64,000 nucleotides of DNA, taken from the NCBI GenBank assembly GCA_963833505.1, contig CAWHYG010000004.1, positions 223,025 through 287,024 on the forward strand, in the 5' to 3' direction. Positions 85-53,600 of the stretch are shown piece after piece (the first letter of the stretch is position 1; each line of letters opens with the position of its first letter). A program made the position numbers and the translations under genes. This DNA comes from Candidatus Eiseniibacteriota bacterium (GTDB lineage Bacteria; Eisenbacteria; RBG-16-71-46; CAIMUX01). The notes beneath the pieces are model-generated. The model had not been told where the DNA came from, did not search any database, and worked only from the letters and a program-made list of their open reading frames with translations.

Positions 85-1726
85 TCAGCGGTACAGGCTC
101 TTGATCTGGCCCCAGGTTCGGACCGACACCGGAACGACCACACAGGGACTGGGGTTGCAGGTCGTGCCTGGACCCATCCATTGGCCCTGACAGTTCGCCT
201 GGGTCGTGATGGTGCAGACCTCATTGATGCAGCAAGCGCCGACCGGCGGCGGCGGGCAGGGATTCGGCGCGCATACGCTGCCGGGGCCCTGCCACGTGCC
301 TCCTTCCTGCTGACAGGTGGACCTGGTCAGCACCACACAACTTCCATCCGCGAAACAGCAAGCCCCGCTGGCCGGCTGCGTGCCGGATACGTAGGCGGCG
401 ATCCCAAGCGCCTGCGTCGGACCCCAGATGATCGATGGATCCGCCCACCCCGTCGGATAGCCGATCCCGGGGGCGATGTTCGTGCGCGGCTTGCCGCGCA
501 TTCCGTCCAGATCGGCTGCGACGCCCCAACCGGGGGTCCCGTCGGGCCACTCGCCCCAATATCCGACGAAGAAGTCGCCATTCACCGGCTCGTCCGAGGT
601 GTCGATATCGTGCAGGGTGACCTTCGGCCAGACTCCCGGAGCCGAGATCGAGATCCCGAAATCCACGTTGATCACGCTGGTCGGATTGCACCCGTCGGAA
701 TTCCACAGGTAGGCATCGAGCCTTTGACCGCTGTACATTCCGGGCTCAGCGGTCAGGGCGTACTGCTGGCCGCAGACGGTTCCAGTCGCGTTGTAGCCTT
801 CGGCAAAGGCTCCGTAGTACGGAGCTGTCTCGCCCCCGTACCACCATGTATATGCGCTTTCATAGGTTCCGTCCGCATTCATGTAGAGGTCCGAGCCGGG
901 GCAGGGATTGTTTCGGCGGCCCGCGTCCAAGCGGCCGACTCCATTCCCGACCGACCATGCTGTCTTCCCGCCATGGGCGAGGAGGCTGCCGCCGCGGGCA
1001 GGCACGGTCCCGCTACGGGTGATCGCGCCACTCTTGAATCGCGCCTTCTGGTAGCAGGGGTTCGGCGAGCAGGTCGAGCTTGGACCCAGCCAGTATCCGG
1101 CGCAGTCGGCCAGCGTTGTCATGCTGCAGGCGCCGCAAATGCAGCAGGCGCCGACGGCCACCGGGCAGGGATTTGGATTGCAGATGGTGTTCGCCCCCAT
1201 CCACTGGCCGGAGCAAGTCAACTGGGTCGTGATGGTGCAGGCCCCGTTGATGCAGCAGGCGCCCGACGGCGGGCACGGGTTCGGATTGCACACCGTGTTC
1301 GGACCCATCCACTGGCCGGAGCAGCCGGTCTGGAACGTGATCGTGCAGGTGCCGTTCGCACAACATGCGCCCGGCTGGGGACAGGGATTCGGGCTGCAGA
1401 CTGTGTTCACGCCCTGCCACGTGCCGCCGGCCTGCGAGCACGCCGCCTGCGTCAAGAGCCGGCAGGTGCCGTCCGGGAAGCAGCAAGCGCCCATAGACCT
1501 TCCACACGTCGATGGCGCCGGGACCGGATCCATCGATCCGGCTCACCGCGTTGACACAGGAAGACAAGGGAGCGATGCCGCAGTAGTCCGAGGTGTCCAC
1601 GGTGTACGAGAGGCCGGGGTAGTGGACGATGAGAGTTCCGCCGGCATTCGGTCCGGCCAGGACGAACGGGGCCGCGGTGCCCATTGTCGCCAACACAACC
1701 AGGAGGACATTCACGAGTCGCCGCAT
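85..1726 (-). pseudogene. Truncated tandem paralog of the Cys-rich-repeat secreted protein at 1831-4638. The N-terminal domain reads in one frame and the repeats in another, consistent with a deletion plus a 1-nt frameshift.
   Basis: The frame starting at the ATG at 1726 encodes a signal peptide plus 'AGPNAGGTLIVHYPGLSYTVDTSDYCG...VWKVY', nearly identical to the N-terminus of the 4638 gene. About 1 nt out of frame (ORF 85..1533) follow 5+2 'GACC...PNPCP' repeats, the conserved approximately 190-aa C-domain and the '...TWGQIKSLYR' tail. The junction lies at about 1490-1530. A GGAGG RBS precedes 1726. Confidence 0.5.
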
Positions 1727-1830: not shown

Positions 1831-4638
1831 TCAGTGGTACAGGCTCTTGATCCGCCCCCAGGTCTGGATCGAGACGGGAACCGGGGGCGGAGGACCCGTA
1901 AGAATGTAAGCGCCGATCCCGATGGCCTGGGTCGGACCCCAGATCACCGACACGTTGCTCCAACCGGTCGGGTAGCCAATCCCGGGCGCGATGTTCGTCC
2001 GCGGCATGCCGCCGAAGCCGTCGAGGTCGGCGCCGATGAACCAGCCGGCGATTGCGCCCGGCCATTCGCCCCAGTAACCCACGAAGAAGTTGCCGGCGAG
2101 CACCTCGTCCGTCGTGTTGATGTCGGCCAGCGTGAAGCTCGGCCAGATCGCCGGCGTTGAAACGCTCAGGCCGTAGTCGACGTTGATGACGCTGGTCGGA
2201 TTGCAGCCGTCGGAGTTCCAGATGTAGGCGTCGGCCTTCTGGCCTTGGTACATGCCGGACTCGGTCGTGATGGCCCACTGCTGGCCGCAGCAACTACCTG
2301 TCGCGTCGTAGCCCTCGGCAAAGGCGCCGTAGTACGGCGCCACCTCGCCGCCATACCACCAGGTGAAGCCGTTCTCATAGGAGCCGTCCGCATTGAGCAG
2401 AAGCGTAGAGCCCGAGCACGGGTTGGTCCGAGGGCCCGCCTTGATCTTGCCGTGCCCGACGCCCACCGAGCGGGCCGTCCGGCCGGAGTGCGCCAGACCC
2501 CTACCGGTATAACGTTTGACCACCGGGCAGGGATTCGGGTTGCAGGTCGTGCCCGCGCCCATCCACTGGCCCTGGCAGTCGGTCTGCGTGGTGATGGTGC
2601 ATTGGCCGCAGATGCAGCAGGCGCCGGTGGGCGGCTGGGGGCAGGGGTTCGGCGTGCACCCCGTGTTCGCTCCCATCCACTGCCCCGGACAGTTCGCCTG
2701 GGTCGTGATGGTGCAAACCCCGTTGACGCAGCAAGCGCCGGCCGGAGGACACGGATTCGGATTGCACGTCGTGTTCGCTCCCATCCACTGCCCCGAGCAG
2801 TTCGCCTGGGTCGTGATCGTGCAGACCCCGTTGATGCAGCAGGCGCCCGCCGGCGGTTGCGGACACGGATTCGGCGTGCAGGACGTCCCCGCGCCCAGCC
2901 AGTTGCCGGTGCAGGCGCTCTGGAGGGTCACCGTGCAGCTTCCGTCAGGCTGGCAGCACGCGCCCGGCTGCGGGCAGGGATTCGGCGAGCAGGTCGTCCC
3001 CGTGCCCAACCAAGTGCCGGTGCAGGCACTCTGGAGGGTCACCGTGCAGCTCCCGTCCGACTGGCAGCACGCGCCCGGCTGCGGGCAGGGATTCGGACTG
3101 CACACCGTGTTCATGCCCTGCCACGTCCCGCCGGCCTGGGTGCACGCCGCCTGCGTCAAGAGCTGACAAGTGCCGTCCTTGAAACAGCAAGCGCCTTCAG
3201 GCTGCGGGCACGGGTTCGGCGTGCAGGTCGTGTTCGCGCCCATCCATTGGCCCGAGCAGGCAGACTGGGTCGTGATGGTGCAGGCCCCGCTGACGCAGCA
3301 GGCGCCTGACGGCGGGCACGGGTTCGGATTGCACACCGTGTTCGAACCCATCCACTGGCCTGAGCAGCCGGCCTGGAGCGTGATCGTGCAGGTCCCGTTG
3401 GCACAACATGCGCCCAGTTGGGGACAGGGATTCGGGCTGCAGACCGTGTTCGGGCCTTGCCACGAGCCACCGGCCTGCGAGCACTCCGCCCGGTTCAAGA
3501 GCTGGCAGGTGCCATCCGGAAAGCAGCAGGCGCCTTGGAGCTGCGTGCACGGATTCGGGTTGCACACGGTGTTCGGACCTTGCCACGTGCCGCCGGCCTG
3601 CAAGCACGCCGCCGGTCTCAAGAGCTGGCAGGTGCCGTCCTTGAAGCAGCAGGCGCCGATCGGCTGCGGACACGGGTTCGGCGTGCAGGTGGTGTTGTCG
3701 CCCTCATACGTGCCGCCCTGCGCGGTGCAGCCGGTTCTCGTCAGAACCTGGCAGCTTCCATCGGCGAAGCAGCAAGCGCCGGTCGGCCCCGTGCACGGAT
3801 TCGGCGTGCAGGTGGTCTTGTCGCCCTGATAGGTGCCGCCCTGCGACAAGCAGTTGGCCTTCGTCAGGACCTGGCAGGTGCCGTCGTTGAAGCAGCAGGC
3901 ACCCGTCGGCTGCGGGCAGGGGTTGGGATCGCACGAGGTGTTGTCACCCAGATACGTGCCGCCCTGCGAAGCGCAGTTGGTCTGCGTCAGGATCTGGCAG
4001 GTGCCGTCCTTGAAGCAGCACGCGCCCGTCGGCAGGACCACCGGGCAGGGATCATTGCCCGCCGTGCTGAACCCCATCGTTCCATAGGCATCGATTGGAT
4101 CCACCTTCGGCGGGATGGAGTCGTCGGTAAAGTCTCCCCCGAGCGACGGGTTCGGCCCGAGGGTGAAGGTGCCGGCACCTCCGGTGACGTACCCGGCGAA
4201 CCAATAGCACTCCACCAGGATCGTGGTCTGCGGGTTGTCCCAGATCACGGAGTTGCCTGTCCCCGAGCGCGGCCAGGTGTTGTCCGGGAACTCGACATCC
4301 CCGCAGGTGCCGTATTCCTGGGCTGGAATCGTGAGATTCCCGGAGTAGGTGATCCCGAAGCTCACGCCCTTGAGACGAGGGCTGCTGCCACCGACGAAGG
4401 CCGCATAGACCTTCCAGACCTTGACGGCTGACGGGCCGGACCCGTCGATCTCGCTCACCGCGTTGACACAGGAAGACAAGGGAGCGAGACCGCAATAGTC
4501 GGCAGTGTCCGCGGTGTAGGAGAGGTCGGGGTAGTGGACGATGAGAGTTCCGCCGGCATTCGGTCCGGCCAGGGCCCACGGGGCCGCGGTGCCCAAGGCC
4601 GCCATCACCACCAGGAGGACACTCACGATTCGCCGCAT
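1831..4638 (-). CDS. Large secreted Cys-rich repeat protein. It has a signal peptide, a conserved N-terminal approximately 85-aa domain, about 13 tandem 37-42-aa six-Cys repeats, a conserved approximately 190-aa C-domain and a 'TWGRIKSLYH' tail.
   Basis: 935-aa ORF with a GGAGG RBS 9 nt upstream and a hydrophobic signal peptide 'MRRIVSVLLVVMAALGTAAPWALA'. The repeat is 'GACCF(K/N/A/P)DGTCQ(L/V)LTxxxCxxxGGT(W/Y)QGxNTxCxPNPCPQP', alternating with a shorter 'GACCxNGxCTITTQxxCSGQWMGxNTxCxPNPCP' subtype. The C-terminus is shared with gene 85..1726. Confidence 0.8.
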   Translation of the reverse strand: MRRIVSVLLVVMAALGTAAPWALAGPNAGGTLIVHYPDLSYTADTADYCGLAPLSSCVNAVSEIDGSGPSAVKVWKVYAAFVGGSSPRLKGVSFGITYSGNLTIPAQEYGTCGDVEFPDNTWPRSGTGNSVIWDNPQTTILVECYWFAGYVTGGAGTFTLGPNPSLGGDFTDDSIPPKVDPIDAYGTMGFSTAGNDPCPVVLPTGACCFKDGTCQILTQTNCASQGGTYLGDNTSCDPNPCPQPTGACCFNDGTCQVLTKANCLSQGGTYQGDKTTCTPNPCTGPTGACCFADGSCQVLTRTGCTAQGGTYEGDNTTCTPNPCPQPIGACCFKDGTCQLLRPAACLQAGGTWQGPNTVCNPNPCTQLQGACCFPDGTCQLLNRAECSQAGGSWQGPNTVCSPNPCPQLGACCANGTCTITLQAGCSGQWMGSNTVCNPNPCPPSGACCVSGACTITTQSACSGQWMGANTTCTPNPCPQPEGACCFKDGTCQLLTQAACTQAGGTWQGMNTVCSPNPCPQPGACCQSDGSCTVTLQSACTGTWLGTGTTCSPNPCPQPGACCQPDGSCTVTLQSACTGNWLGAGTSCTPNPCPQPPAGACCINGVCTITTQANCSGQWMGANTTCNPNPCPPAGACCVNGVCTITTQANCPGQWMGANTGCTPNPCPQPPTGACCICGQCTITTQTDCQGQWMGAGTTCNPNPCPVVKRYTGRGLAHSGRTARSVGVGHGKIKAGPRTNPCSGSTLLLNADGSYENGFTWWYGGEVAPYYGAFAEGYDATGSCCGQQWAITTESGMYQGQKADAYIWNSDGCNPTSVINVDYGLSVSTPAIWPSFTLADINTTDEVLAGNFFVGYWGEWPGAIAGWFIGADLDGFGGMPRTNIAPGIGYPTGWSNVSVIWGPTQAIGIGAYILTGPPPPVPVSIQTWGRIKSLYH

Positions 4639-4904
4639 CTCACACGCTCCTTCCGCCGGGCCGGTTCAAAACCGGGGCGCAGGACCATCGCGAACTTCGA
4701 GACCGATCGAGCGGCAGAATCCCGGAAGCGAGGAGGGCCAGGTTCAGGAGCGTGCAGCTCGACCCTGGATTTTCAGACGCTGTAATTCTACTAATGAGAA
4801 ATCGCGTTGTCAAGAAGACCCCTCGATCGCTGCGACGCGATCGCAGGTCTCCTCGTCTCTGTCGATTGAGCTCCATGCGACATTCGAAACCGGCAAGGCC
4901 GTAC

Positions 4905-12109: not shown

Positions 12110-12937
12110 TCAGTCGTTTCGCCGGAGCAGTCCGGCCCGGAGCAGGAAGTACAGAAGCTGCAGGATCGCCGCCGAGGCCGCAGCCACGTAGGTCATGGCC
12201 GCCGCCGTCAGGACTTTCTTGACCCCATCCAGCTCGACGCCGGTGACGATCGCCTGCGAGCGCAGCACGCCGATGGCGCGGCGGGAGGCGTCGAATTCCA
12301 CCGGCAGCGTGACGAGCTGGAAGATGACCGCCGCGGAGAAGAAGATGATCCCGAGCTTGACCAGACTGAACGCGCCGAAGATGAACCCGATCATGAGCAG
12401 CGGCCAGGCCAGGTTGGAGCTGACCGTCGTGATGGGCACCATGGCGGTGCGCCACTGGAGCGGAAGGTAGCCGCGGGCGTGCTGCAGGGCATGCCCGGAT
12501 TCGTGCGCCGCGACGCCGACGCTTGAGACCGACCGTCCGTCATAGACCTCCGGAGAAAGCCGGAGGACCCGGGTCCGGGGGTCGTAATGGTCGCTCAGGA
12601 ACCCTGTTACCCGCTCCACTTTCACCCCGAGCGCGGCACTCCGGACGATGCGCTCGGCCGCTTCCGCCCCCGACAGCCCGCCCGCGACAGCGACCTTCGA
12701 GTACTTGGCAAAGGCGCTCTTCACCCAGACCTGGGCGATGATCGACAGGATCAACGCCGGACCGACGATGATGAAATAGATCGGATCAAAAAACATGAGG
12801 CACCTCCGCGGCGAGAAACCGCCTCTCGGGGTATTACGCCCCCGCGGCGGACCGGGTTCCTCGCCCCGACCGACGGCAGGATCTTCGGTCTGGCTTCCAT
12901 AGAGGATTCCAGCCGGAGATCCGATGGTCAAGGCCAT
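12110..12937 (-). CDS. Putative neutral zinc metallopeptidase (Zn_peptidase_2 family membrane protein)
   Basis: 275 aa, N-terminal TM, 'HESGHALQH' motif. The family assignment is from memory. Confidence 0.7.
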   Translation of the reverse strand: MALTIGSPAGILYGSQTEDPAVGRGEEPGPPRGRNTPRGGFSPRRCLMFFDPIYFIIVGPALILSIIAQVWVKSAFAKYSKVAVAGGLSGAEAAERIVRSAALGVKVERVTGFLSDHYDPRTRVLRLSPEVYDGRSVSSVGVAAHESGHALQHARGYLPLQWRTAMVPITTVSSNLAWPLLMIGFIFGAFSLVKLGIIFFSAAVIFQLVTLPVEFDASRRAIGVLRSQAIVTGVELDGVKKVLTAAAMTYVAAASAAILQLLYFLLRAGLLRRND

Positions 12938-13154
12938 TGTACGAACCGCGATTCGCGTCAGGCGCTCGACCGCTCATCCGATTTGCCGATCATCCGCATC
13001 CATGCTGATCGGATTCTCTGGTTCCCTGATTCTCCGCTTGACCGCTCATCCGTCTATCCGCGCGAGCGCCGGGGAGTTATCCCAGCGTCGGTTTGAACCC
13101 CGTGCCAGCGACAGGGGAACGACCGCAGGCAGCTCCGTGCCGATGTGGTGGAAC

Positions 13155-15437
13155 CTATCGCAGCGTCGGCTTCAGCGAAGCGCGGAGCTCGTCCAGGTTT
13201 TTCAGGAGCTTGGTCGCTCCCGGATGGCCGGGTTGCGCGGCGAGCACGATCCTGGTCTGCTGATAGGCCTCTTCCAGCCAGGCGACGGGCACCGGATGGC
13301 CGGCCTCGGCCTCCATGTGCGCCTCGAGAGCCAGGGATCCGGCCAGCCCCAGGTGGGTGGACGGATCGTCCCCACCCCGGGCCAACGCCTGGCGGAAGGC
13401 ATCCACCGCCTCCGCGGGCCGATCAAGGGACACGAGAGCGACCCCGAGATCGTGCCAGTGGTTCAGGCTGGGATCGAGCTGCATGGCGTGGCGGTAGGCG
13501 TCGACCACGAGGTCGGGGCGATTGGCTCCGGTGGCGGCGTATCCGACCAGCTCCCACGAAGTGGCCACCGAGTGGTCCTCCTTCACGAGCTTCTGAAACC
13601 AGTCCAGCGCCGTGCCGTAGTCCTTTTTTTGCAGCCCCAGCTTGCCCAGCATCTCGTAGCCCATGCTGGCAAGGCCGACGTTGTTGGGGTCGTCGGCCAG
13701 GCCCGCCTCATACTCCTTCTCCGCCAGATCGAGCTCTCCGCGCGAGAAGTAGATCGACCCGAGGAGGATGCGGAAGCGGGCGTTCGAGGGGTAGGTCGCA
13801 ACGCAGCGCTGGTACATCTGCTCGGCCCGCTCCATGTCGTTCCCCTTGCGGTAGTACTTGCCGAGCTCCTCGTAGCCGTAGGCGCGGGGAAAGGCGGGAA
13901 AGTCAGCCAGCACGGACGTGAAGCGAGCGATGGAACGCGTCTCCATGTGCAGGAGCGTCACCCACGGCGCGGTCATCAGAAGCCCCACCGCCAGGATCAT
14001 CCCCAGGACCGGATCCGGCCGACCGCTTTCTCTTCCCGCCGCCGCCACCGCTCCCGCGTCCGCGTTCGCGCCTCGTCGACGCTTCGACCCGGGTCGCCTC
14101 GACGTCTCCGGGATCCCGGTTTCGTTCGAAGTCAGGGCCGGGCTCGGCGCAGTCGGGACCGGAATCGCCTCCGGCTCGACCGATGGCCCCAGACGATCTC
14201 CGCCGTCCGCCCTCGGCAACAGCAGGGCCGCCAGCGGGATCAATCCGCCGGAAAGCCCGGCCAGCATGTCCCAGTCGCGCGCGCCGCCGAGCTTCTTGTC
14301 CAGCAGGAAGTAGAACAGGGTGATCGGTACGATCTGGCTGAGCAGGAACGGCACCGGTTCCCGGCGAAGCCTCGGATAGAGACGCCGCCAGCTCGCCAGC
14401 ACCACCACGAGCGGCACCGGGGCCATGATGAGCAGGTCGTTGAACGTGTCCTTCAGGTGATACCAGGAAAAGAGGCCGTAGCTGCCGCGGATCGGAATCC
14501 AGAGGGAGTGGGCGTTCCGGTTCTCGAAGAACTCCTTGTGAACCCAGTAGGCGTTGTAACCCGCGAGAAAATGCAGCCCCGCCGCCAGGCCCAGGAAAAA
14601 CGCCGGAGGGCCGACCGCCAGGAGCCAGCGCCGCCACGCCGGCCGCACGGGCGCTTTCAACGCGAGATAGAGGATGGCGGTGCCACAGAACAAGCTGGTC
14701 AAATGAAAGGCCAGGGCGATCCCGTACAACGTGGAAGCGACCCAGAGCGGAAGCCGCTCCTCCAACACCAGGACTCCCGCGATCAGGAAGGCGTTCATGA
14801 ACAGCAGGAGCCAGGTATAGCTTTCGACGTAGCCGAAGAAGAGCGTGGCCGGCCCGAAAAGGAAGAGGAGCAGGAAAAGGGCGGCCTTGCGCCACGGCTC
14901 CCAGGAGAGCCTCCCGATCAGGCTCCGGTAGAGAAGCACCGCGATCATCCCCGCCAGGACGGAGGCGGTCCGGTACACGCCGAAGGACGTCACCCAGGAC
15001 AGGTGGCGACTGAGATACTCGTACACCCGGACGTGAAAGAGATAGTCGAGGGCGTCAAAGGTGCGGAACTTCACCAGGCGGCCGACCAGCTCTCCGACCA
15101 GGTAGCCGTCCCCCATGAAGAACGAGCGCTCCCGGACGAGCGCGAAGAGCGCGCCGGCCGACGGCACCAGGATCCAGGGAGCGGAGCGGCGCTCGAAGAG
15201 GAAGCGCGGAACCGGGCCCGCCATCGCCGAGGTCAGGCGTTCCTGGGCGCGCGGCCACGCCGCCAGAAGCGCGGCCGCGATCCAGAGCGCGAAAAACCAG
15301 ACCGGCAGATACGCCAGGTGGTTGAAACCCCATGCCGGAGGTCCGGGCACGAAGCGGCCCGCGAACATGAGGACAAGCAGGATGCCAAGCCCGATCCGGA
15401 GGCCCCGGTTCCTCCTGCTGGCGGGATGTCCGTCCAT
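13155..15437 (-). CDS. Polytopic membrane protein (DUF2723 / PMT-like glycosyltransferase-like N-terminus) with a C-terminal TPR repeat domain
   Basis: 760 aa with more than 10 predicted TM helices and TPR-like repeats at the C-terminus ('YYRKGNDMERAEQMYQRCVATYPSN...'). Confidence 0.6.
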   Translation of the reverse strand: MDGHPASRRNRGLRIGLGILLVLMFAGRFVPGPPAWGFNHLAYLPVWFFALWIAAALLAAWPRAQERLTSAMAGPVPRFLFERRSAPWILVPSAGALFALVRERSFFMGDGYLVGELVGRLVKFRTFDALDYLFHVRVYEYLSRHLSWVTSFGVYRTASVLAGMIAVLLYRSLIGRLSWEPWRKAALFLLLFLFGPATLFFGYVESYTWLLLFMNAFLIAGVLVLEERLPLWVASTLYGIALAFHLTSLFCGTAILYLALKAPVRPAWRRWLLAVGPPAFFLGLAAGLHFLAGYNAYWVHKEFFENRNAHSLWIPIRGSYGLFSWYHLKDTFNDLLIMAPVPLVVVLASWRRLYPRLRREPVPFLLSQIVPITLFYFLLDKKLGGARDWDMLAGLSGGLIPLAALLLPRADGGDRLGPSVEPEAIPVPTAPSPALTSNETGIPETSRRPGSKRRRGANADAGAVAAAGRESGRPDPVLGMILAVGLLMTAPWVTLLHMETRSIARFTSVLADFPAFPRAYGYEELGKYYRKGNDMERAEQMYQRCVATYPSNARFRILLGSIYFSRGELDLAEKEYEAGLADDPNNVGLASMGYEMLGKLGLQKKDYGTALDWFQKLVKEDHSVATSWELVGYAATGANRPDLVVDAYRHAMQLDPSLNHWHDLGVALVSLDRPAEAVDAFRQALARGGDDPSTHLGLAGSLALEAHMEAEAGHPVPVAWLEEAYQQTRIVLAAQPGHPGATKLLKNLDELRASLKPTLR

Positions 15438-15816
15438 GCACCCAACCTAGCACAGGTCTTCGGCCGGCGCTCCTCGGGAGAGCAAGCCGGATCGGATCCG
15501 CCGACGACCCGGATTGGATCGTCTGACGACCCGGATTGGATCCTCCGACCACCCAGCCGCAACCACGCTATCGCCCACCGGGGCCGATCCGGACTGGGAG
15601 AAGGCGGTGGTCCGGCAGGTTCCGGGTGCCGCGTGGAAGATCCTGTGCGAAAATGCTCCGGAACGGAGGTCCGGCGGCGACCGATAACAACGGAAGAGCC
15701 TCGTGGAGCCCCGGGTGGATCCGCAGAGCCGACCCTGGCATGTCGGACGACGCGGTCCGGCGCGCGGGGCGGATCGGCGTGCTGCGCGAACCGGCATCAC
15801 GCGGAAGGAGAACAGT

Positions 15817-16650
15817 GTGATCGAGAAACTGCGCATCAAACCCGGCACCCGGGTTACCCTCAAGGACTGGGATCCCGCCGACACCTTCGGCCACTCCCGC
15901 AAGGCGATCGCGGCCGAGCTGGCCGAGCTCAAGGAGACGATCGTCCAGCGCCAGGCGATGCTGCACGCCGATCACCGCCATGCCGTGCTCGTGATCTTCC
16001 AGGCTCTCGACGCCGGCGGCAAGGACGGGGTCATCGGCCATGTCCTCTCGGGCGTCAATCCGCAGGGATGCAGCGTCATCGGCTTCAAACAGCCCACGGC
16101 GGAAGAGCTGGAGCACGACTACCTCTGGCGCATCCACCGCGTGATTCCGGCGGCGGGCATGATCGGGATCTTCAATCGATCCCATTACGAGGACGTGCTC
16201 GCCGTCCGGGTGCGCGATCTGGTGCCGGAAACGGAGTGGCGGGCGCGGTACGAGCAGATCAACCGGTTCGAGCAATACCTGCACGAGAACCGGGTCAAGA
16301 TCCTGAAGTTCTATCTCCACATCTCGAAGAAGGAGCAGCAGCGCCGGCTCCTGGAAAGGCTGCTCGATCCGGAGAAGAACTGGAAGTTCGAGCCCGGCGA
16401 CCTGGTGACCCGGGAGCACTGGAACGCGTACACGGAGGCCTACGAGGAAGCCCTTGGGCGCTGCTCGACCGAGCACGCCCCCTGGTACGTGATTCCGTCC
16501 GATCACAAGTGGTTCCGGAACCTCGCCGTGGCGAAGATCCTCGCCGAAGCGCTGAAGGAGCTTCCCCTCCACTGGCCGAAGCCGAAAGCGGAGACGAAGG
16601 CCCTGGTCAACCTCGCGAAGAAGACGGGGAAGCTTCCGGTCGAGAAGTGA
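15817..16650 (+). CDS. ppk2: Polyphosphate kinase 2 family protein (PPK2)
   Basis: Walker A 'DAGGKDG' plus 'FNRSHYEDVL', typical of PPK2. GTG start at 15817 with GGAAGGAG 7 nt upstream. The ORF-track start at 15703 is probably an over-extension. Confidence 0.85.
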   Translation: MIEKLRIKPGTRVTLKDWDPADTFGHSRKAIAAELAELKETIVQRQAMLHADHRHAVLVIFQALDAGGKDGVIGHVLSGVNPQGCSVIGFKQPTAEELEHDYLWRIHRVIPAAGMIGIFNRSHYEDVLAVRVRDLVPETEWRARYEQINRFEQYLHENRVKILKFYLHISKKEQQRRLLERLLDPEKNWKFEPGDLVTREHWNAYTEAYEEALGRCSTEHAPWYVIPSDHKWFRNLAVAKILAEALKELPLHWPKPKAETKALVNLAKKTGKLPVEK

Positions 16651-16814
16651 TCGTCCCGGGACTGGGCGGCTATCGGCTCGCGGCGCGGCCCGGGACCCTG
16701 GGCATCAACCAGGAGCACCGGACAATCGATCGGCGCTGGATGTTCCACCGGGTCGCGGAGCGCGCGCTTCGTCGGTGCCCCGGGTCGGACGATCCGTTAC
16801 AATGACCGCCAGCC

Positions 16815-23084: not shown

Positions 23085-23892
23085 CTGGCTGGCCGGCCGC
23101 CGAACCAAGACGACCTGGTCAAGCGGGACGCTCTGATTCCGCCTGATTCCGCCGAACCATGACGAGTCGGTCATCCGGGACGCTCTGATTCCGCCGAACC
23201 ATGACGCCTCGGTCATCCGGGACGCTCTGATTCCGCCGAACCATGCCGCCTCGGTCATCCGGGACGCTCTGATTCCGCCGAACCATGACGACCTGGTCAA
23301 GCGGGACGCTCTGATTCCGCCGAACCATCACGCCTTGGTCAACCGGGACGCTCTGATTCCGCCGAACCATGACGCCTTGGTCAACCGGGACGCTCTGATT
23401 CCGCCGAACCATGACGACCTGGTCAAGCGGGACGCTCTGATTCCGCCGAACCATGACGAGTCGGTCATCCGGGACGCTCTGATTCCGCCGAACCATCACG
23501 CCTCGGTCAACCGGGACGCTCTGATTCCGCCGAACCATCACGCCTTGGTCAACCGGGACGCTCTGATTCCGCCGAACCATCACGCCTTGGTCAACCGGGA
23601 CGCTCTGATTCCGCCGAACCATGACGCCTTGGTCAACCGGGACGCTCTGATTCCGCCGAACCATGACGCCTCGGTCAACCGGGGCGCTCTGATTCCGCCG
23701 GACCATGACGACCTGGTCAAGCGGGACGCTCTGATTCCGCCGAACTACGACGCCTCGGTCAACCGGGACGCTCCTGTTCCGCCGAACTACGACGCCTCGG
23801 TCAACCGGGACGCTCTGGTTCCGCCGAACCAGGACGCCTCGGTCGTCCAAGGCGGTTCGCCCCCGCCGAGGTACGAGGTTCTGGTCAACCGG
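23085..23892. repeat. Tandem array of about 18 units of a 42-bp repeat. Each unit has a 24-bp invariant core 'gacgctctgattccgccgaaccat' plus an 18-bp segment with 8 related variants. The first unit carries a 10-bp internal duplication and the last units are degenerate.
   Basis: Units begin at 23179, 23221, 23263 and so on with exact 42-bp phase. Both the + frame (DALIPPNHDxxVxR)n and the - frame (VRRNQSVPVDxGVM)n are open but have only TTG starts. Confidence 0.85.
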
Positions 23893-24329: not shown

Positions 24330-25602
24330 CTATCGGATCAGCGTCAACCTGCTGGTCAGCACTCTGGGTCCGGTCGCCAATCGGATCACGTATATGCCGG
24401 ACGGCAGCGGCCTGCCGCCTTCATCGCAGGAATCCCAGCGGATCGAATGTAGGCCGGCGTCCTCTCGTTCACTCACCAGACGCCGGATCTGCCGGCCGGA
24501 AACATCGAGGACGTCCAGGACGACGCTGACGGGAGCCGCCAAGCCGTATCTGATCGCCACCGGGCCGGCGCTGGGGTTCGGTTCCGGCTCAGGCCGCAGG
24601 AATCGAGCGACCTCCCCCACCTGGGCCGAGGAGGTCGGGCACGGGTTCGGGTTGCAGGGGACGCCGTAGCCCTGGAAGAACCCGAGCTCCTGCCAAAGCG
24701 GCGACGCCATTATTTACACCGGTGCCCATGGGGTACCATCCACTTCCATCCCACCGGGCGATGTAGCTCGCCGGTTTCCCGCCGGCCTGGGTGAAAGCTC
24801 CCCCGGCAATCAGGTCCCCGTTATAGACTGCCAAAGCAACGACTGAACCGTTCGTCCCGGAACCGAGGGGCTGCCAGGTCGTGCCGTTCCATGCGGCGAC
24901 GTGGTTCGCTCCTTGCCCGCCCGCCAGCGGAAAGTAGCCGCCCGCAACCACCGTGCCGTTATAGTCCGCCAGTGACTCGACTTCTCCGCTCATCCCTGAC
25001 GACATGGGTGCCCACGTGGTGCCATTCCACTCCGCGATCATGTTCGCCGCGAACCCCCCCGCCGTGTGGAAGCCCCCGCCGACGATGAGATTCGACGCGA
25101 AGGGAAGGAGCACCTGCACGAAGCCATCGCTGATGCCTGACCCCAGCGGCCACCAGGCATTGCCGTCCCACCTCGCGATCGAGTTCGCCGGACGACCGCC
25201 GGCGTGGCCGAAATACCCGCCCACTATCAAGCTTCCCGAGTACACAGCAGCCGCGTAGGCCTCGCCGTTGACTCCCGCGCCGAGGGGCTCCCAGCTCGTG
25301 CCGGACCACTGAGCGACGTAGGAGGCGTTGTCTGGCTCTATGCCCTGGAACGAACCCACCGCGATCAGCGTCCCGTTATAGACCGCCAGTCCCGACACTG
25401 GGGTTTCCGCAGGCGGCCCGCACAGTCCAGCGAGCGTCCCGCACCAATCGGCGCGGGACTGGCACGGCAGCACAAGAAGGCCGGCAATCCCCAGCAGGAG
25501 AACCCAAGCGCCGTGGCTTGCGGTCCGGTGGTTGCCGGATGCCCGCAAAACAGGGAAACCCCACCGACCTGTCCGCGACGCCCCTTCAACGAGCGAGCTC
25601 AT
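24330..25602 (-). CDS. Secreted beta-propeller-like repeat protein with a 'CNPNPCP' linker and a FlgD-Ig/T9SS-like C-terminal domain. Split into two ORFs by a frameshift near 24600-24700.
   Basis: ORF 24589..25602 carries a signal peptide and repeated 'W(N/D)G(T/S)xWxPLGxG' blades. ORF 24330..24710 carries 'GYGVPCNPNPCP' plus '...GIYVIRLATGPRVLTSRLTLIR'. The two ORFs overlap by 120 nt in different frames. Confidence 0.6.
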
Positions 25603-41193: not shown

Positions 41194-43731
41194 CTACGGC
41201 CTGGCGGGATAGATCTCCTGGTCGATCCCCAGCCCCTTGGAGTTCGGCGCCCGGCGCGTCAACCATTCGAGGTTGTTCCCGCGATCGGGACGCGACAGAG
41301 GATGCGCCTTGACGCCGGCGCTGTCGGACTCCTCCCACTGGTACACGTCCTGCCCTTGCGTGTCCATGAAGATGCCAATGGACTCGAGGTCGTCCCGGAA
41401 GGAACGAAACGGCGTGTACCGGGTGGCAGTGCCCATCGGCGGCGTGTCGGTCCAGCCGTTGGGCGGGCCTAGCAGCTCATAGCGCACGTGATAGACGTCG
41501 TTGCCGCGCCGGTCCCAGAAGAGCCCGATGGAGTTGAGGTCCGCCGAGCCGCCGCAGTGGCTCCGCCAGTAGTACTCGTCATTGCCGTCGCCGTCGATCG
41601 AAATGCCGATCGACCCGTCGCGCGCGTGTCCTTGATACTGGTTCACAGCCACGTCGTTGTCGACGTTGTAGCGATCATCCCCGGATAGATCGACCTGGCA
41701 TCCAATGGCGAAGTGGGCTCCCGCGCCCAGGGAGTACTTGCCGTTCCGGTAGGTGTCGTTGCCGCCGAGGTCTTCCAGGATGCCGAGCGACCACCAGTAG
41801 CCCGCTCCGTCGCTCCAGGCCGTGGCGTGATAGGAGTCGTCCCCGGCGCCGTCGACCAGAACGCCGATGCCTCCGGCCAGCGAGTGGCCGTCTCCAAGAT
41901 CGGCGCGGCGTCCCTGGCCGACTCCCTGGGCCATGGACACCGAGAGACCGTTGTACAGAGGATCCGGATTTCCGTCGTCCCGCGCCAGGTAGGAATCATT
42001 CCCTTTCACATCGATCAGGAAGCCGGCGCCCAGCGTGCTGCCTAATCCCTGGGCGTCGTAGCCACAGACGTAGTGGTCATCTCCGGCCTGATCGACCAGC
42101 AGACCGACTCCGACCATGCCCATGCCTTCGCCCTCGTGGGTGTCCAGCGTGTAGGTGTCGTTCCCGCCGAAGTCCATCAGGATCCCGGTCCCGAAACAGC
42201 CCATGCCCAGGCCGGCTTCGGCACAGCGATAGTGATCGTCGCCCGAAAGGTCGAAGATCGCCCCCAAGCCGAAAAGGCCGCAGGAGAGCGAAGCCGGCTC
42301 CGGACCGCCCTCGTAGGTGTCGTTGCCCGCCAGATCCAGAACCAGGCCGATCGGCTGAGTCCGGCCGAGCGGAACGCCGTGCACTCCCCGGTAGAGATCA
42401 TCGCCGCCGAGGTCGAGCGTGAAGAAGGCCCGGTCGTCGATGGTGTCGCGGCCTGTGCCGAAGATGTGGACCGGACCCAGAGGCGTCGTGAAACGGCAGC
42501 CTCGGAAGGCGGGCGGAATGGCATTCGCCGACGAATCGCCCGCTCCGGCGCGCTGGTACTCCCGTAACGCGCGCCGGAAATGCGCCAGGAAGACAACCGA
42601 GCCAAAAGCCATATAGTCGCGATCAAATCGATCCAGCATTTCGAGCGAGGTTCGGGAGAGCGTGGCGGGTTGGTCCAGACGGGCGTCCCGCCAAGGAGCC
42701 ATCGCGAAGTGATAGCGGGCGGTCAGGGCGGCCGTGTCGGCGAATGCCCCTGCGGGAGCTTCGGAAGCCTGATTGCGTGCGCTCGCCTTGGAGTGCTTGC
42801 TCGGCGGCTTGGCCTGACCGCTTGCCGCCGAGGAATTCCCCGCCTCGAAGACCTGCGCGAAAACCGGGTCGTCATAGGCCTTCTCCAGCCAGGGCGCCGC
42901 GTCGTCAGCCCCGAGCACGATTCGGACCACCAATCTCTGGACTCGCAGTGGAAGCTGGGCGAAGGCCGCGCGCTCGGATGCCGCCAGCTCGTATGGATCG
43001 CCATGGACTTCAGTGTGCCGGAGATACGCCTCGAGCGCCTCGAGCGGAGAGGCCTGCTTGGGAACCCATTCGGGGCCCCAGGTCAGGCTGTCGGGCAAGG
43101 GGATGTTCCGGCCCGCCGACACGTCGGTCAGCGCGTAGGCGCGAGTGACCAGCTCCGCCGGATCCTGCGCGTTCTGGATCAGGTCCTCGGACAGTTTGCC
43201 GCTGAATCGCGGAATGGCACGGACGTCGTGAAAGAGATTCCGCACCGTGCGCAGGATGGAGTCGTCGTGCCCGTAATTGGCCATCTCCTCGGTCGTGAAG
43301 CCGATTGGCCGGCCGGTGCGGCCCAGTTTCGCCAGGACCGCGTCCCAGAGGCTGTCCGGGATCGCCAGATCGGCCCGGGCTGGGCCTGGCCAGGACAGCC
43401 GCGGATACCCGGCGGCCGGGGCCGCGGCGTTCGGAGCTGACTTGGCTTTGACTGCCTTGCCCGAGGCCAGCTTGGCCGAGGCCGGCTTGCCCGAGGCCGC
43501 CTTGCCCGAGGCCGGCTTGCCCGGGGCAGCCTTGCTCGAGACCAGCTTGGCAGAGATCGGCTTGTCCGAGGTCGCCTTGTCCGGGGCCGCCGTGCTCGGG
43601 GCCATTGTGGCCAAGGCGTTGCGCCCGTTGCCGGCGCTAGTCGGACTTATCCAAGCAACCACGGGCCGGGAATCGAACAGGGTTGCGATCAGAGCAATCA
43701 GGATCCAGGCGGACCAACGGACACGGTTCAC
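41194..43731 (-). CDS. Large secreted repeat protein with 'DL(S/A)G(N/D)DxY...G.G.G.L.D..G.D.Y' beta-helix-like repeats and an N-terminal (KPASG)n low-complexity linker
   Basis: Probable GTG start at 43731 after an AAGGGGG run, followed by a signal peptide 'VNRVRWSAWILIALIATLF'. Fifteen-bp DNA repeats at about 43440-43590 encode K-P-A-S-G. Confidence 0.6.
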   Translation of the reverse strand: MNRVRWSAWILIALIATLFDSRPVVAWISPTSAGNGRNALATMAPSTAAPDKATSDKPISAKLVSSKAAPGKPASGKAASGKPASAKLASGKAVKAKSAPNAAAPAAGYPRLSWPGPARADLAIPDSLWDAVLAKLGRTGRPIGFTTEEMANYGHDDSILRTVRNLFHDVRAIPRFSGKLSEDLIQNAQDPAELVTRAYALTDVSAGRNIPLPDSLTWGPEWVPKQASPLEALEAYLRHTEVHGDPYELAASERAAFAQLPLRVQRLVVRIVLGADDAAPWLEKAYDDPVFAQVFEAGNSSAASGQAKPPSKHSKASARNQASEAPAGAFADTAALTARYHFAMAPWRDARLDQPATLSRTSLEMLDRFDRDYMAFGSVVFLAHFRRALREYQRAGAGDSSANAIPPAFRGCRFTTPLGPVHIFGTGRDTIDDRAFFTLDLGGDDLYRGVHGVPLGRTQPIGLVLDLAGNDTYEGGPEPASLSCGLFGLGAIFDLSGDDHYRCAEAGLGMGCFGTGILMDFGGNDTYTLDTHEGEGMGMVGVGLLVDQAGDDHYVCGYDAQGLGSTLGAGFLIDVKGNDSYLARDDGNPDPLYNGLSVSMAQGVGQGRRADLGDGHSLAGGIGVLVDGAGDDSYHATAWSDGAGYWWSLGILEDLGGNDTYRNGKYSLGAGAHFAIGCQVDLSGDDRYNVDNDVAVNQYQGHARDGSIGISIDGDGNDEYYWRSHCGGSADLNSIGLFWDRRGNDVYHVRYELLGPPNGWTDTPPMGTATRYTPFRSFRDDLESIGIFMDTQGQDVYQWEESDSAGVKAHPLSRPDRGNNLEWLTRRAPNSKGLGIDQEIYPARP

Positions 43732-43961
43732 GACGGCACCCCCCTTCGGAGCATGGTTCTTTGACACGCCGAGAATAGGACACTCGTCGGCACCCGGAAA
43801 CCGCAAAGCTGCGGGTCGAACAGAGGCCGGATCGTCTTGCGGCCCGTCAGATCCGTTGACCACTGCGCCCCGACGTCTTTAGCCTGGGATGGACACGCCG
43901 CTCCCGGGACCGGGAGTTCGGGAACGTGAAACGATCGAAATCGTGAAACGGAGACAATCCC

Positions 43962-44696: not shown

Positions 44697-45470
44697 ATGA
44701 GTCGGCGATTTGCTCTCATCCTGCTGTTGCTTGTCTGGGCGCCATCCGCGTTCGCCGTGCAGACGGCATCGGCGCCCAATGTCATCACTCCGAACCCGGG
44801 CTGGATCCACGGTCCGAGCCGGGCCACCATGGCTCTGCTCGAAACCACGACGACCGCTCTCGGCGGTGTGCTCAGCGCGCTGGGCTATGGCTACGACGAG
44901 TACCAGGGTCCTCCGTTCCCGACGAGCCTGTCCGGCTACACGGATGTGTTCCTTGGGATGGACGGCGGTCTGGTTGAGCCGTCTGACGTTCAGAACCTGG
45001 CCAACTACGCTTCGGCCGGCGGCCGGCTGCACTTCTTCGGCGGCACCTGCTGGCAGGACTACGTCAACGGGATGAACACCTACCTGGTCCAGAACAACAC
45101 CAGCAACTACTGCTGGACCGAGGTCGGCGGATATCCCGACGTCACGGTCGTCGATCCCGAGAACGGTCTGGCTTCGGGACTTCCGGCGACCTATGAGTTC
45201 ACCAACCCGGCGGCGTCGTTCTATCAGTTCCGCGCCACCGACCCCGCCATCGCGGTCGCGTGCGACAACGGGGACGGCTACCACATGCTCTTCTCGAAGC
45301 GGATCGGTTCCGGCGACTTCGATTACTGCATCAACAGCTCTTACATCAGCTACTGGGCCGGCCAGGACCTGGCCTGGATGACCACGGTCGTCTCGAACAT
45401 GCTCGTGTGCTGCGGCCCGGTCCCGGTACAGAGCGTGACCTGGGGGCGAATCAAGGTCACCTATCGGTAG
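44697..45470 (+). CDS. Secreted hypothetical protein that ends in the 'PVQSVTWGRIKVTYR' tail shared with the Cys-rich repeat proteins
   Basis: 257 aa with the signal peptide 'MSRRFALILLLLVWAPSAFA'. The C-terminal 15 aa match the tails of the 85 and 1831 genes. Confidence 0.65.
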   Translation: MSRRFALILLLLVWAPSAFAVQTASAPNVITPNPGWIHGPSRATMALLETTTTALGGVLSALGYGYDEYQGPPFPTSLSGYTDVFLGMDGGLVEPSDVQNLANYASAGGRLHFFGGTCWQDYVNGMNTYLVQNNTSNYCWTEVGGYPDVTVVDPENGLASGLPATYEFTNPAASFYQFRATDPAIAVACDNGDGYHMLFSKRIGSGDFDYCINSSYISYWAGQDLAWMTTVVSNMLVCCGPVPVQSVTWGRIKVTYR

Positions 45471-50112: not shown

Positions 50113-50609
50113 GCGAGGACCGACCGCGCCGCCTGGGGTGACGCGCCGTTCATGCTCGCCCGTGGATCGCGCCCTCTGTCGCACTGGGGCCCTGCAGGCT
50201 CGATGTGACATCTTGTCCGACGTTTGGCCGGGCGCACAGGTCCTCCGGGAAAAAACCTCTCAGACCGACCCTGCCGGTTACGAAAGTCCCATTGAGCCTG
50301 CCCCGGTTCGAAGCTCGCCTGTAAGCCTTCCGGCCCGTCCGATCGTACGACCCATTCGTCCGCCTGGACGAATGGTGCCGGCCAAGCCTGAAAGCAAGCG
50401 AGCCCCCTAACCCGCTCCGTAGCGCCCAACCTCCCTTCATGGTCGGAATCCCGCGCACGACAAGGCGCGGATGCACCGGTTGCCCGCGGCCGTCAGCCGC
50501 ATTCATTCCCTGGCACCCTGATTGCAAACAGAGCGTTCGAACCAGGCCTCCGCGGTACTGGTCACAAGGGTCATCGTTTTTCCAGAGGAGATCGAGAAGG
50601 AGGATGTCC

Positions 50610-53600
50610 ATGAACACGGTAAACAGCCGATCCAAGTTGTACGCCGGCGTTGGAACGCGAGATCCAAACGGCCCTAGACGTTCCGCGGCGCTGTTCCTGT
50701 GTGCGTTCCTGTTGCTGTTCTCCACGCCACATCATTCGGCAGCGTCGCCCTATGCCGTCGGCGTGCGGCTTGATTTTGCCACCGGCACCGCTCCCCATGC
50801 GATGGCGGTCGGAGATCTGGACGGCGACGGCAATACCGACATGGTGGTCGCAAACTACACCTCAAACACCGTGTCGGTCCTGCTCGGCTACGGCACGGGG
50901 AAACTCTCGGCCAGGCGGGACTTCGCCGTCGGAACGACTCCCTGGGGAATCGCGGTCGGGGACGTGAACGGCGACGGGCATCTCGACGTCGTAACCGCGA
51001 ACTACTCGTCCAACACGGTGTCGGTGCTCCTGGGAGACGGCGCGGGCGGATTCTCGCCGAAGCGGGACTTCGCGACCGGAGCGCATCCACTTTCGGTCGC
51101 GATCCGGGACGTCAACGGAGACGGAAGGTCCGACCTGGTTGTGGCCGACTGGAGCGCGAACACGGTTTCGGTGCTGCTGGGCGATGGTCAGGGAGGCTTC
51201 GGGACCAAGACCGACTACGTGACCGGAACCCAGCCTTTCTGGGTCGCGATCGAGGATGTGAGCGGAGACGGCAGGCCGGACCTCGTGGTGGCAAGCCACA
51301 TCTCGAACGCCGTCTCCGTGCTGCTGGCCGACAGCCTGGGAGGCTTCCGTCCCAAGGTCGACTACCCGACCGGGAACGGTCCGTATTGCGTGGCGATCTC
51401 GGACGTGAACAACGACGGAAAGCCCGACCTGGCGGTTGCGAACATCGACGCCAACACGGTGTCCGTGCTTCTGAACACCGGCGGCGGAGTCTTCGGCACG
51501 AAGACCGACTATGCGGCCGGCTCCTCCCCCACCTCGGTCCGAATCGGAGACCTGAACGGCGATGGGAAGGCGGACCTGGTGGCCACGAACGCCGCCTCCA
51601 ACACCGTGTCCGTGTTTCTCGGCAACGGCAACGGCACCTTCGGAACGAAGACCGACTTCACCACAGGAACCGAGCCGCGGGCGGTCGCGCTCTGCGACAT
51701 GAACGGCGACGGCCAGGTCGATCTGGCGTTGGTCGACCGCGCCGCCAACACTGCCTCGGTTCTGCTCGGCAACACCCGGGGCCTCTTCGGGGCGAGCGAC
51801 AGCCTCCGCACCGGGCACAATCCCAGCGCGATGGCTTCCGGCGATCTGAACGGGGATGGGATTCCCGACGTGGCGGTCACCAACGCCGGCTCCAACACGG
51901 TATCGGTCTTCCTCGGCCTGAGCGCGGGCGGGTTCGCGGCAAAGACCGACTTCGCGACCGGGACCCGTCCCATGGGGGTCGCCATCGGGGATGTGAACCT
52001 CGACGGACATCCCGACCTTGCCGTGGCGAACATCAGCTCCAGCACGGTCTCGGTCCTGCTCGGAAACGGCGCGGGCGGGTTCGGGACCAAGACCGATTTC
52101 CCAACCGGATCAGGTCCCAACTCCGTTTCTCTGGTAGACGTCAGCAACGACGGGAAGGCGGACCTGGTGGTGACCAACCAGAACGCAGGCACCGTTTCGG
52201 TTCTCCTCGGCAACGGCAGTGGCGGATTCGGGACGAAAACCGACTTCACGTGCGGAACCTATCCCAATTCCGTCGCCGTCGGCGACCTGAACGGAGACGG
52301 GAATCCGGACCTGTCGGTGGCCAACCTGGGCTCCAACTCGGTGTCGGTTCTCCTCGGCAACGGTGCGGGCGGGTTCGGCACGAAGACCGACTTCACGACG
52401 GGGACGTATCCGCGATCGATCGTGATCGGGGATCTGAACGCCGACACCAGGCTGGACGTCGCGGTGGCGGACTCGGGCTCCAACGCCGTCTCGGTGCTCC
52501 TCGGCAACGGAACGGGCGGGTTCGGCACGAAGACGGACTTCCCGACCGGAGCGGGGCCCCGGTCGATGATCATCGGAGACTTGAACGGGGACGGAAACCT
52601 CGACCTAGCCACGGCGAACCCGAACGCCAGTTCGATTTCGGTGCTACTCGGCAACGGCGCTGGAGCGTTCGGATCTGTGAGCAGCTACCACGCGAACGGC
52701 CCCGCATGTCTCGCTGAATTCGGGGCGTCTTACGACGCTGAAAGCGGACAATGGATCGATTCGAGTGACATTTGTGATCTCCCGTGGGACGAGGACGATG
52801 TCTGCTGGTTTGGGGGGCATAAGCACGTACGGCCGGCACATGGGCACGGCACGCTTCATTGCCCAACCGCCTTTCCCAGCCCACCCAGCCCGGAACTCCT
52901 GGGTGGCCCGCTCCCGTTGACCTTCCAGGTGTGCATGACCGACGTCGGGACCCTCCAGGCCCCGGCCGACTCGGTGCGCTTCTTCGATGGCACGACCCTC
53001 CTCGGCACCTCTCCGGTGAACGTGAACGGGCAGGCCGGTCTGACCCTGCCCGCCCTGTATCTCGGTGAGCGTTCGCTCACCGCCGTCTACACCGGCAGCG
53101 ACTCGCTCTTCGGCTGGATCGCGGCGCCGCAGACGATCCATGTCGTCTCCACCGCCAAGCCGGCGATCACCGGCATCACCGATGTCAGGAACGACCAAGG
53201 CCGACAGGTCCGCCTGACCTTCACGCGAAGCCCGTTCGACATCCTGAATTCGGGCACGCCGATCACGGGCTACCAGGTGTACCGGAGGATCGCGGGAGCG
53301 GAAGGAGGGGGAGGACAAGCGCTGATGACCTTCCCGCCGGCATCGCGCCATGTTCCGAGGCCCTCGGCGCAAGACGTCCAGTGCGCCGGCTGGGACTACG
53401 TCCTGACGGTGCCGGCGACAACCGAGGACATCTACGAGACCGTGGTGCCGACGCTGGCCGATTCGAACTCCTTCGGCATCCACCGGAACACCTTCTTCGT
53501 GCGCGCGGCCACGGCCACCGCCAGCGTCTACTACGATTCGCCGCCCGATTCCGGCTACTCGGTGGACAACCTGCCGCCGCTGCCGCCCGAAAAATTCGGC

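Follow-up and report, generated by a model that had tools for sequence, protein, structure and literature searches.

A tandem six-cysteine repeat of extracellular proteins in Candidatus Eisenbacteria and its similarity to a portion of the iRhom homology domain

The iRhom homology domain controls ADAM17 and TNF shedding and is medically important. It has been described as a single large domain with 16 conserved cysteine residues and 8 disulfides, located between the first and second transmembrane segments (TM1 and TM2) (PMC10148629, PMC11248996). The domain binds ADAM17 (PMC11248996), and its fold, reported to be without detectable homologs, was called 'unprecedented' (PMC11248996) and 'a unique fold' (PMC10148629). 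Our literature searches gave nothing relevant to a bacterial origin of the domain, and a 2025 review names no bacterial relatives. Here, we analyze a gene at positions 1831-4638 on the minus strand of a 64,000-nucleotide stretch (the window) from a Candidatus Eiseniibacteriota genome (GenBank assembly GCA_963833505.1, contig CAWHYG010000004.1). Its product carries 13 tandem six-cysteine units from a repeat family that is real, undescribed and abundant in extracellular proteins. A hitherto unreported property of this unit is its specific similarity to one portion of the iRhom homology domain.

A widespread six-cysteine repeat family

The open reading frame (ORF) at 1831..4638 on the minus strand is intact over 2.8 kb and encodes a 935-residue protein with a cysteine content of 9.4% (88/935). 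A regular-expression parse divided residues 205-705 (2524..4026, minus strand) into exactly 13 head-to-tail units of 36-41 residues each, starting at residues 205, 246, 287, 328, 369, 409, 445, 482, 522, 559, 598, 634 and 672, with GACC at the start of a unit and PNPC(P) at its end. Each unit contains six cysteine residues, with a seventh in unit 13, at the spacing CC-x4/5-C-x7-C-x10/13-C-x4-C. The CC..C cores of the first seven units lie at 3916-4020, 3793-3897, 3670-3774, 3547-3651, 3424-3528, 3316-3408 and 3208-3300, and those of the last six at 3085-3189, 2974-3069, 2863-2958, 2749-2841, 2641-2733 and 2527-2619, all on the minus strand. This six-cysteine repeat pattern is far beyond chance. 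At the DNA level, Tandem Repeats Finder detected the array with periods of 108-123 nt at 72-90% match, and the antisense strand gives long ORFs (e.g. 2245-3309 and 3418-4431, plus strand). An earlier note on this DNA had described about 13 tandem six-cysteine repeats at fixed spacing, encoded by periodic DNA with spurious antisense ORFs, all of which agrees with the parse. Its statement that long and short subtypes alternate does not hold, since the subtypes are grouped in blocks that read L L L L L S S L M M S S S (long, short and medium) along the array. Thr-rich strands (CTITTQ, CTVTLQ) are specific to the short subtype of the 935-residue protein and are not a family-wide feature.

Scans of Pfam-A and NCBIfam produced no match to the whole protein at E ≤ 1, and none at E ≤ 10 to a single unit, a double unit or either of the domains that flank the array (N-domain and C-domain). 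EGF-like, TNFR_c6, Dickkopf and the Myxococcus Cys-rich repeat are thus among the families left unmatched at these thresholds; the view that the unit is not EGF, TNFR or another named cysteine-rich repeat stands, with no contrary Pfam match. A search with the whole protein found more than 2,578 relatives, and the source-named matches listed came mostly from Candidatus Eisenbacteria and in a few cases from Planctomycetota or Phycisphaerae. Mapping by hidden Markov model located 1,344 units in 120 homologs, with the consensus GACCFPDGSCTVLTEADCAAAGGTYQGDGTSCDPNPCP and six essentially invariant cysteines. We then searched 1.84 billion protein cluster representatives (50% identity) exhaustively with a profile of 129 units. 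At E ≤ 1e-3 the profile matched 8,992 clusters, and at E ≤ 1e-10 it matched 4,704; single proteins carry as many as 37 units. We also scanned GTDB genomes, one for each species, which confirmed 205 stretches, and the best 80 of these derive from Phycisphaerae/Phycisphaerales metagenome-assembled genomes (the majority) and Candidatus Eisenbacteria, together with a few other Planctomycetota and two contigs labeled Acidobacteriota. The phyletic search that the earlier note had proposed therefore shows the units to be widespread in metagenome-assembled genomes of Phycisphaerae and Candidatus Eisenbacteria, and no isolate appears among the matches listed in the family searches. We found nothing relevant in the literature on cysteine-rich repeats of Eisenbacteria or Phycisphaerae. 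The suggestion of a new repeat family is accurate in that the unit is unnamed in Pfam and NCBIfam, with the qualification that the family is large, is already present in public data as 'hypothetical protein', and recognizably resembles one solved structure, discussed below.

The conservation of the unit is concentrated in its framework. Across 234 homologous proteins with 3,136 units (median 12 per protein), all six cysteines are kept in 2,774 units. Apart from Cys, Gly and Pro, the columns are variable, with a mean column identity of 38%, while unit position 25 is a conserved aromatic residue with conserved glycines around it (GG-x-[WYF]-x-G). Disulfide pairs could not be derived from the co-loss of cysteines, which are too invariant; the apparent losses are alignment shifts or truncations. 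We modeled three consecutive units (residues 328-444) with AlphaFold2 (AF2), template-free and from a 95-row alignment of natural tri-units. The model has a predicted local distance difference test score (pLDDT) of 95.5 and a predicted TM-score (pTM) of 0.69, and is confident in the connectors as well. Each unit forms a β-hairpin, a short helix and a short strand. The structure prediction that had been proposed for the unit thus gives a confident hairpin-plus-helix model. In two uncultured and little-known lineages, the family is the dominant component of many giant secreted proteins annotated as 'hypothetical', and models for the unit, the N-domain, the C-domain and the C-terminal tail described below (WGxIKxxY[RH]) would allow thousands of proteins to be annotated.

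Resemblance to the iRhom homology domain

We compared the 129-unit profile with 177,635 distinct PDB sequences. Four matches were obtained at E ≤ 10, and all were to iRhom1 or iRhom2. The best (E = 3.3e-4) aligns all six cysteines and falls in the last six-cysteine stretch of the iRhom homology domain. When the tri-unit model was compared with 350,542 chains by Foldseek, 9xy4_A (iRhom1) ranked first and 8snl_B (iRhom2) second, with probabilities of 0.95 and 0.90, a root-mean-square deviation of 2.3 Å over 39 columns and an identity of 28%. The E-values of these matches were 0.4-0.6, and every other match to the tri-unit was noise. In a shuffle test with the cysteines fixed, the real iRhom1 segment scored 25.5 bits, compared to 7.7 ± 3.6 bits for the shuffled sequences, and 1 of 5,000 shuffles reached the real score. 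The similarity is thus not only that of the cysteine scaffold. Alignment of the unit profile to a three-sequence iRhom alignment with hhalign gave a probability of 69% (P = 4.4e-5). The iRhom1 sequence was confirmed against residues 102-267 of PDB entry 9xy4_A.

The correspondence is to one part of the iRhom domain. iRhom1 holds a second, looser CC-module (CC-x7-C-x7-C-x29-C-x6-C), the last cysteine of which pairs outside the module (C527-C548 in mouse iRhom2; PMC10148629). Thus, the domain is more than a pair of units. The 166-residue iRhom1 segment (9xy4_A residues 102-267) itself has no match in Pfam, which accounts for the silence of the library scans with the bacterial unit. A protein-database search for the iRhom homology domain yielded only exon-fragment ORFs, because an intron splits the iRhom module.

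Whether this resemblance reflects descent is a finely balanced matter. We regard it as possible, at even chances or somewhat below, that the bacterial unit is a true homolog of the last, membrane-proximal, six-cysteine sub-module of the iRhom homology domain. Convergence, in which the CC-C-C-C-C framework and the hairpin-helix shape were invented independently, is a serious competitor that we place just short of even. Three results argue against convergence: only iRhom1 and iRhom2 reach E ≤ 10 among PDB sequences that include every solved cysteine-rich family, the non-cysteine residues contribute about 18 bits beyond the cysteine scaffold (z of about 5), and the template-free AF2 model independently ranks the same two iRhom chains first. 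If homology were true, the iRhom domain would have been built from a small extracellular module that Phycisphaerae and Eisenbacteria possess in abundance as tandem repeats, and the bacterial units would provide the first outgroup for the iRhom homology domain and a simple model system for its fold. The unit is the first candidate relative of part of this domain.

Flanking domains, C-terminal tail and proposed role

The start codon and a Sec-type signal peptide (residues 1-24, MRRIVSVLLVVMAALGTAAPWALA/GP) are read directly from the sequence at 4567..4638 on the minus strand, in keeping with the earlier description of the protein as secreted. AF2 shows a helix at residues 2-23, stand-alone relatives begin alike, and the full-length AF2 model predicts no helical segment apart from this single signal peptide at the N-terminus. 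The N-domain follows (residues 25-203, 4030..4566), delimited by jackhmmer mapping; it is all-β, with about 10 strands and pLDDT >90. Downstream of the array, a basic and probably flexible linker (residues 706-739, VVKRYTGRGLAHSGRTARSVGVGHGKIKAGPRTN, 2422..2523), with pLDDT <50 at residues 707-719, leads to the all-β C-domain (residues 740-920, 1879..2421; pLDDT about 90), in which the motifs quoted previously are present in the sequence. The protein ends with the tail TWGRIKSLYH (residues 926-935), encoded with the stop codon at 1831..1863 and recognized by motif statistics.

The full-length AF2 model has a mean pLDDT of 80, with low confidence in connectors that lack alignment coverage, in the linker at residues 707-719 and in the stretch before the tail. 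Foldseek comparison of this model to the PDB, which does not report the query region, gave probabilities of 1.00 to several cohesins (nine-stranded β-jelly-rolls) with TM-scores normalized to target length of 0.44-0.71; the cohesins matched were 5lxv_A (E = 7.6e-4), 2vo8 (TM-score 0.71), 2xdh, 2jh2, 1g1k and 3ul4. Further matches were to carbohydrate-binding modules (CBMs) of family CBM6 (1gmm, 1uxx) and to the Cwp84 lectin-like domain (4ci7). At the sequence level, neither the N-domain nor the C-domain matched a Pfam family, whether scanned singly or within an alignment, and PDB profile searches with them gave noise only (E ≥ 0.13), with no cohesin.

We mapped the domain architectures of 120 homologs. 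A single protein may contain as many as three N-domains (about 175 residues) and as many as three C-domains (about 200 residues); their order varies, and arrays of units always lie between them. Other proteins with such units combine the arrays with S8, M12 and C1 peptidases, multicopper oxidase, Ig, FG-GAP, CARDB and thrombospondin-3 domains, and end in dockerin, FlgD-Ig or type IX secretion system (T9SS) domains at the C-terminus. A special link to M12B/ADAM-like proteases was considered and rejected, as HExxHxxGxxH occurs in only 1 of the 234 unit proteins. Connectors between units measure 0-8 residues in 2,562 of 2,902 junctions, and in a quarter of the 234 proteins the last unit is followed by 20 residues or fewer, i.e. 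by the tail only. The number of units differs among close paralogs, from 4 to 13 or more on the same contig. The C-domain is also very common as a stand-alone protein of about 232 residues, consisting of signal peptide, C-domain and tail. A C-domain profile search found 335 proteins (P0336-P0455 among them), most of 220-240 residues and all annotated as 'hypothetical', from Candidatus Eisenbacteria metagenomes. Among the relatives P0059, P0061, P0075 and P0091, the precomputed Pfam annotation of the Phycisphaerae protein P0091 includes a type I dockerin. Together with the cohesin-like fold of one flanking domain, this dockerin hints at a possible cohesin-dockerin-style assembly system in these lineages.

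The tail conforms to the motif [VT]xx[ST][ST]-W-G-x-[IV]-K-x-x-[FY]-[RH], which has no Pfam or NCBIfam model. Among the 120 closest homologs, 77 have it at the very C-terminus, as do 112 of 120 stand-alone C-domain proteins. Only 2 internal occurrences were seen, and the motif is rare (5/114) among the further, more varied representatives that the unit-profile search contributed. Some relatives have true FlgD-Ig or Por_Secre_tail domains. In the window, the motif ends three ORFs (1831-1863 and 85-114 on the minus strand, 45441-45470 on the plus strand), the last being an unrelated 257-residue secreted protein with no Pfam match (44697..45470, plus strand) that ends in VTWGRIKVTYR. This distribution marks the strictly C-terminal tail as a testable candidate for a lineage-specific sorting or anchoring signal of Eisenbacteria.

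Taking the architecture together, we consider it slightly likelier than even that the 935-residue product is a secreted modular protein, most likely displayed at the surface, in which the units form a disulfide-stapled stalk separating binding domains of cohesin/CBM-like type. After Sec export, each 36-41-residue module would fold into a small β-hairpin-plus-helix knot, presumably held by three disulfides, and neighboring knots would be joined by short Pro-rich connectors (PNPCPQP-GACC). The 13 modules together could then make a protease-resistant, semi-rigid stalk between two β-sandwich domains of cohesin/CBM-like fold, the presumed binding modules, with the WGxIKxxY[RH] tail as the putative sorting or anchoring signal. 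We read the array as a stalk because arrays in relatives separate varied extracellular domains from C-terminal sorting elements. The very short, Pro-rich connectors and the variation of copy number among close paralogs support this, as does the co-occurrence of the units with many unrelated extracellular domains, directly before sorting elements. The retention of six cysteines while other columns vary (38%) points to a scaffold rather than to one conserved binding site. Several points weigh against the stalk. The case for it is architectural, and small cysteine-rich modules in tandem can also be ligand-binding; the connectors at residues 361-519, a stretch without alignment coverage, have low confidence in the full-length model; and the Foldseek output does not assign the cohesin or CBM matches to the N-domain or to the C-domain.

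The chief rival is that the units are themselves functional and act as a multivalent adhesin or ligand-binding array (for polysaccharides, minerals or proteins), with the flanking domains as accessories. In this case each module would expose its conserved aromatic residue and, in the 935-residue protein, Thr-rich strands. We judge this unlikely, though deserving of weight. Small cysteine-rich modules such as hevein/CBM18 bind ligands, the aromatic residue at unit position 25 and its surrounding glycines are conserved, and up to 37 copies occur in one protein. In addition, the unit resembles the iRhom homology domain, which binds protein and contacts ADAM17 (PMC11248996). Set against these points, the columns other than Cys, Gly and Pro are highly variable and show no evident common binding surface, the units co-occur with many unrelated catalytic and binding domains and often directly precede a sorting element, as is typical of spacers, and the Thr-rich strands are confined to the short subtype of this one protein. 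A metal-binding (metallothionein-like) or redox-buffering role, which the high cysteine content and the CC doublets might suggest, is very improbable given the signal peptide, the exclusively extracellular types of the partner domains in relatives, the even and invariant number of six cysteines per unit and a compact AF2 fold that is confident without metal; moreover, no metallothionein or metal-binding family was matched in Pfam-A or NCBIfam. We attach equally little credence to the idea that the repeat number, or the gene, is an artefact of a metagenome assembly. The sequence is periodic and the adjacent paralog described below contains a junction one nucleotide out of frame, but DNA identity among the repeat copies of the two genes is only 60-87% and long stretches of near-identity are absent, which makes assembly collapse unlikely. 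The frame of the gene is also open over its full 2.8 kb, and hundreds of independent assemblies encode the same architecture.

Genomic surroundings and comparison with described systems

Directly downstream of the gene lies a truncated paralog (85..1725, minus strand) that the earlier note did not mention. It comprises a signal peptide, a 76-residue part of the N-domain, four units, a C-domain, two further units (six in all) and the tail TWGQIKSLYR. The signal peptide and N-domain part run from 1725 down to about 1490, the junction, which shifts the frame by one nucleotide, is at about 1485-1490, and the remainder is the ORF at 85-1533. The 5' end of the paralog (1485-1747) shares 87% DNA identity with the 1831-4638 gene, as does its 3' end together with the sequence that follows the stop codon. 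Its first units are 87% identical to units 6-8 of that gene, and about 0.9 kb is missing internally. The paralog is a tandem duplicate and, because of the out-of-frame junction, is either a pseudogene or affected by a sequencing error.

A promoter-like site (TTGACA-17-TAGAAT, matching the consensus at 11 of 12 positions) is located at 4785..4813 on the minus strand, about 147 nt upstream of the ATG; it is a consensus match only, with 1 found versus 0.6 expected from shuffled sequences. The neighboring genes are housekeeping genes, namely transketolase, a 6-phosphogluconate dehydrogenase-like gene and glucose-6-phosphate dehydrogenase. The genome has a G+C content of 65-68%, and the locus is an ordinary chromosomal one. 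Elsewhere in the window, a propeller protein at 24330-25602 (minus strand) has weak matches to Rax2, DUF5122 and DUF6087 and appears to be frameshifted near 24700. The earlier note had placed a CNPNPCP linker in this protein. The motif is indeed present at 24639-24653, where it corresponds to only the last two cysteines of a unit, but its frame differs from that of the ORF at 24589-25602, and it joins the propeller protein only if the frameshift is bridged. We interpret this to indicate that the note read across the frameshift. The downstream frame encodes CNPNPCP and then a FlgD-Ig/T9SS-like C-terminal domain ending in LTLIR. The window also contains a 42-bp tandem repeat array (23143-23844; 16.7 copies, 92% match) that gives repetitive ORFs in both orientations (VMVRRNQSVPVDQG... 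on the minus strand and NRDALIPPNHDALV... on the plus strand). Other very large ORFs encode a 1,232-residue FG-GAP/Big_3_5 protein (50439-54137, plus strand) and two proteins with no Pfam match, of 1,293 residues (12924-16805, plus strand) and 889 residues (41194-43863, minus strand).

The tail resembles the T9SS C-terminal domain/FlgD-Ig and PEP-CTERM signals in being strictly C-terminal, and it alternates with FlgD-Ig/T9SS-type C-terminal domains in homologous architectures. It differs in comprising only about 10-14 residues, without a transmembrane segment or a β-sandwich domain, and the T9SS/FlgD-Ig models (PF18962, PF13860 and TIGR04183, β-sandwiches of about 70-100 residues) have no match in the 935-residue protein. 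One or both flanking domains resemble cohesins, β-jelly-rolls of the CBM6/CBM35 type and the Cwp84 domain at the level of the fold (TM-score ≤0.71 by target length), and some unit-bearing Phycisphaerae relatives have dockerin domains. The flanking domains differ from cohesins and CBMs in having no sequence match in Pfam or the PDB, with identities of 6-17%. The units themselves are reminiscent of EGF-like, TNFR and other eukaryotic six-cysteine modules, which also measure about 40 residues and follow one another head-to-tail in extracellular proteins, where they serve as rigid spacers or in binding. However, they have no Pfam match to these families, their cysteine pattern starts with a CC doublet, and no such fold was found among the Foldseek matches.

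The closest described system is the iRhom homology domain. That domain is an insert in a rhomboid-like membrane protein, whereas the bacterial units are free-standing modules repeated 4-37 times in soluble secreted proteins that lack a rhomboid core. The 935-residue protein has no Rhomboid match in Pfam and lacks the TM1-TM2 insertion context, and its tandem units of 36-41 residues with six cysteines contrast with a single domain of 16 cysteines and 8 disulfides. Both are extracellular or luminal and rich in cysteine, and the framework CC-x6-C-x7-C-x13-C-x4-C of iRhom1 and iRhom2 (9xy4_A, 9q7y_A, 8snl_B, 9o58_B) compares with the dominant CC-x5-C-x7-C-x13-C-x4-C of the unit. The x6 variant of the iRhom framework is also seen among the bacterial units.

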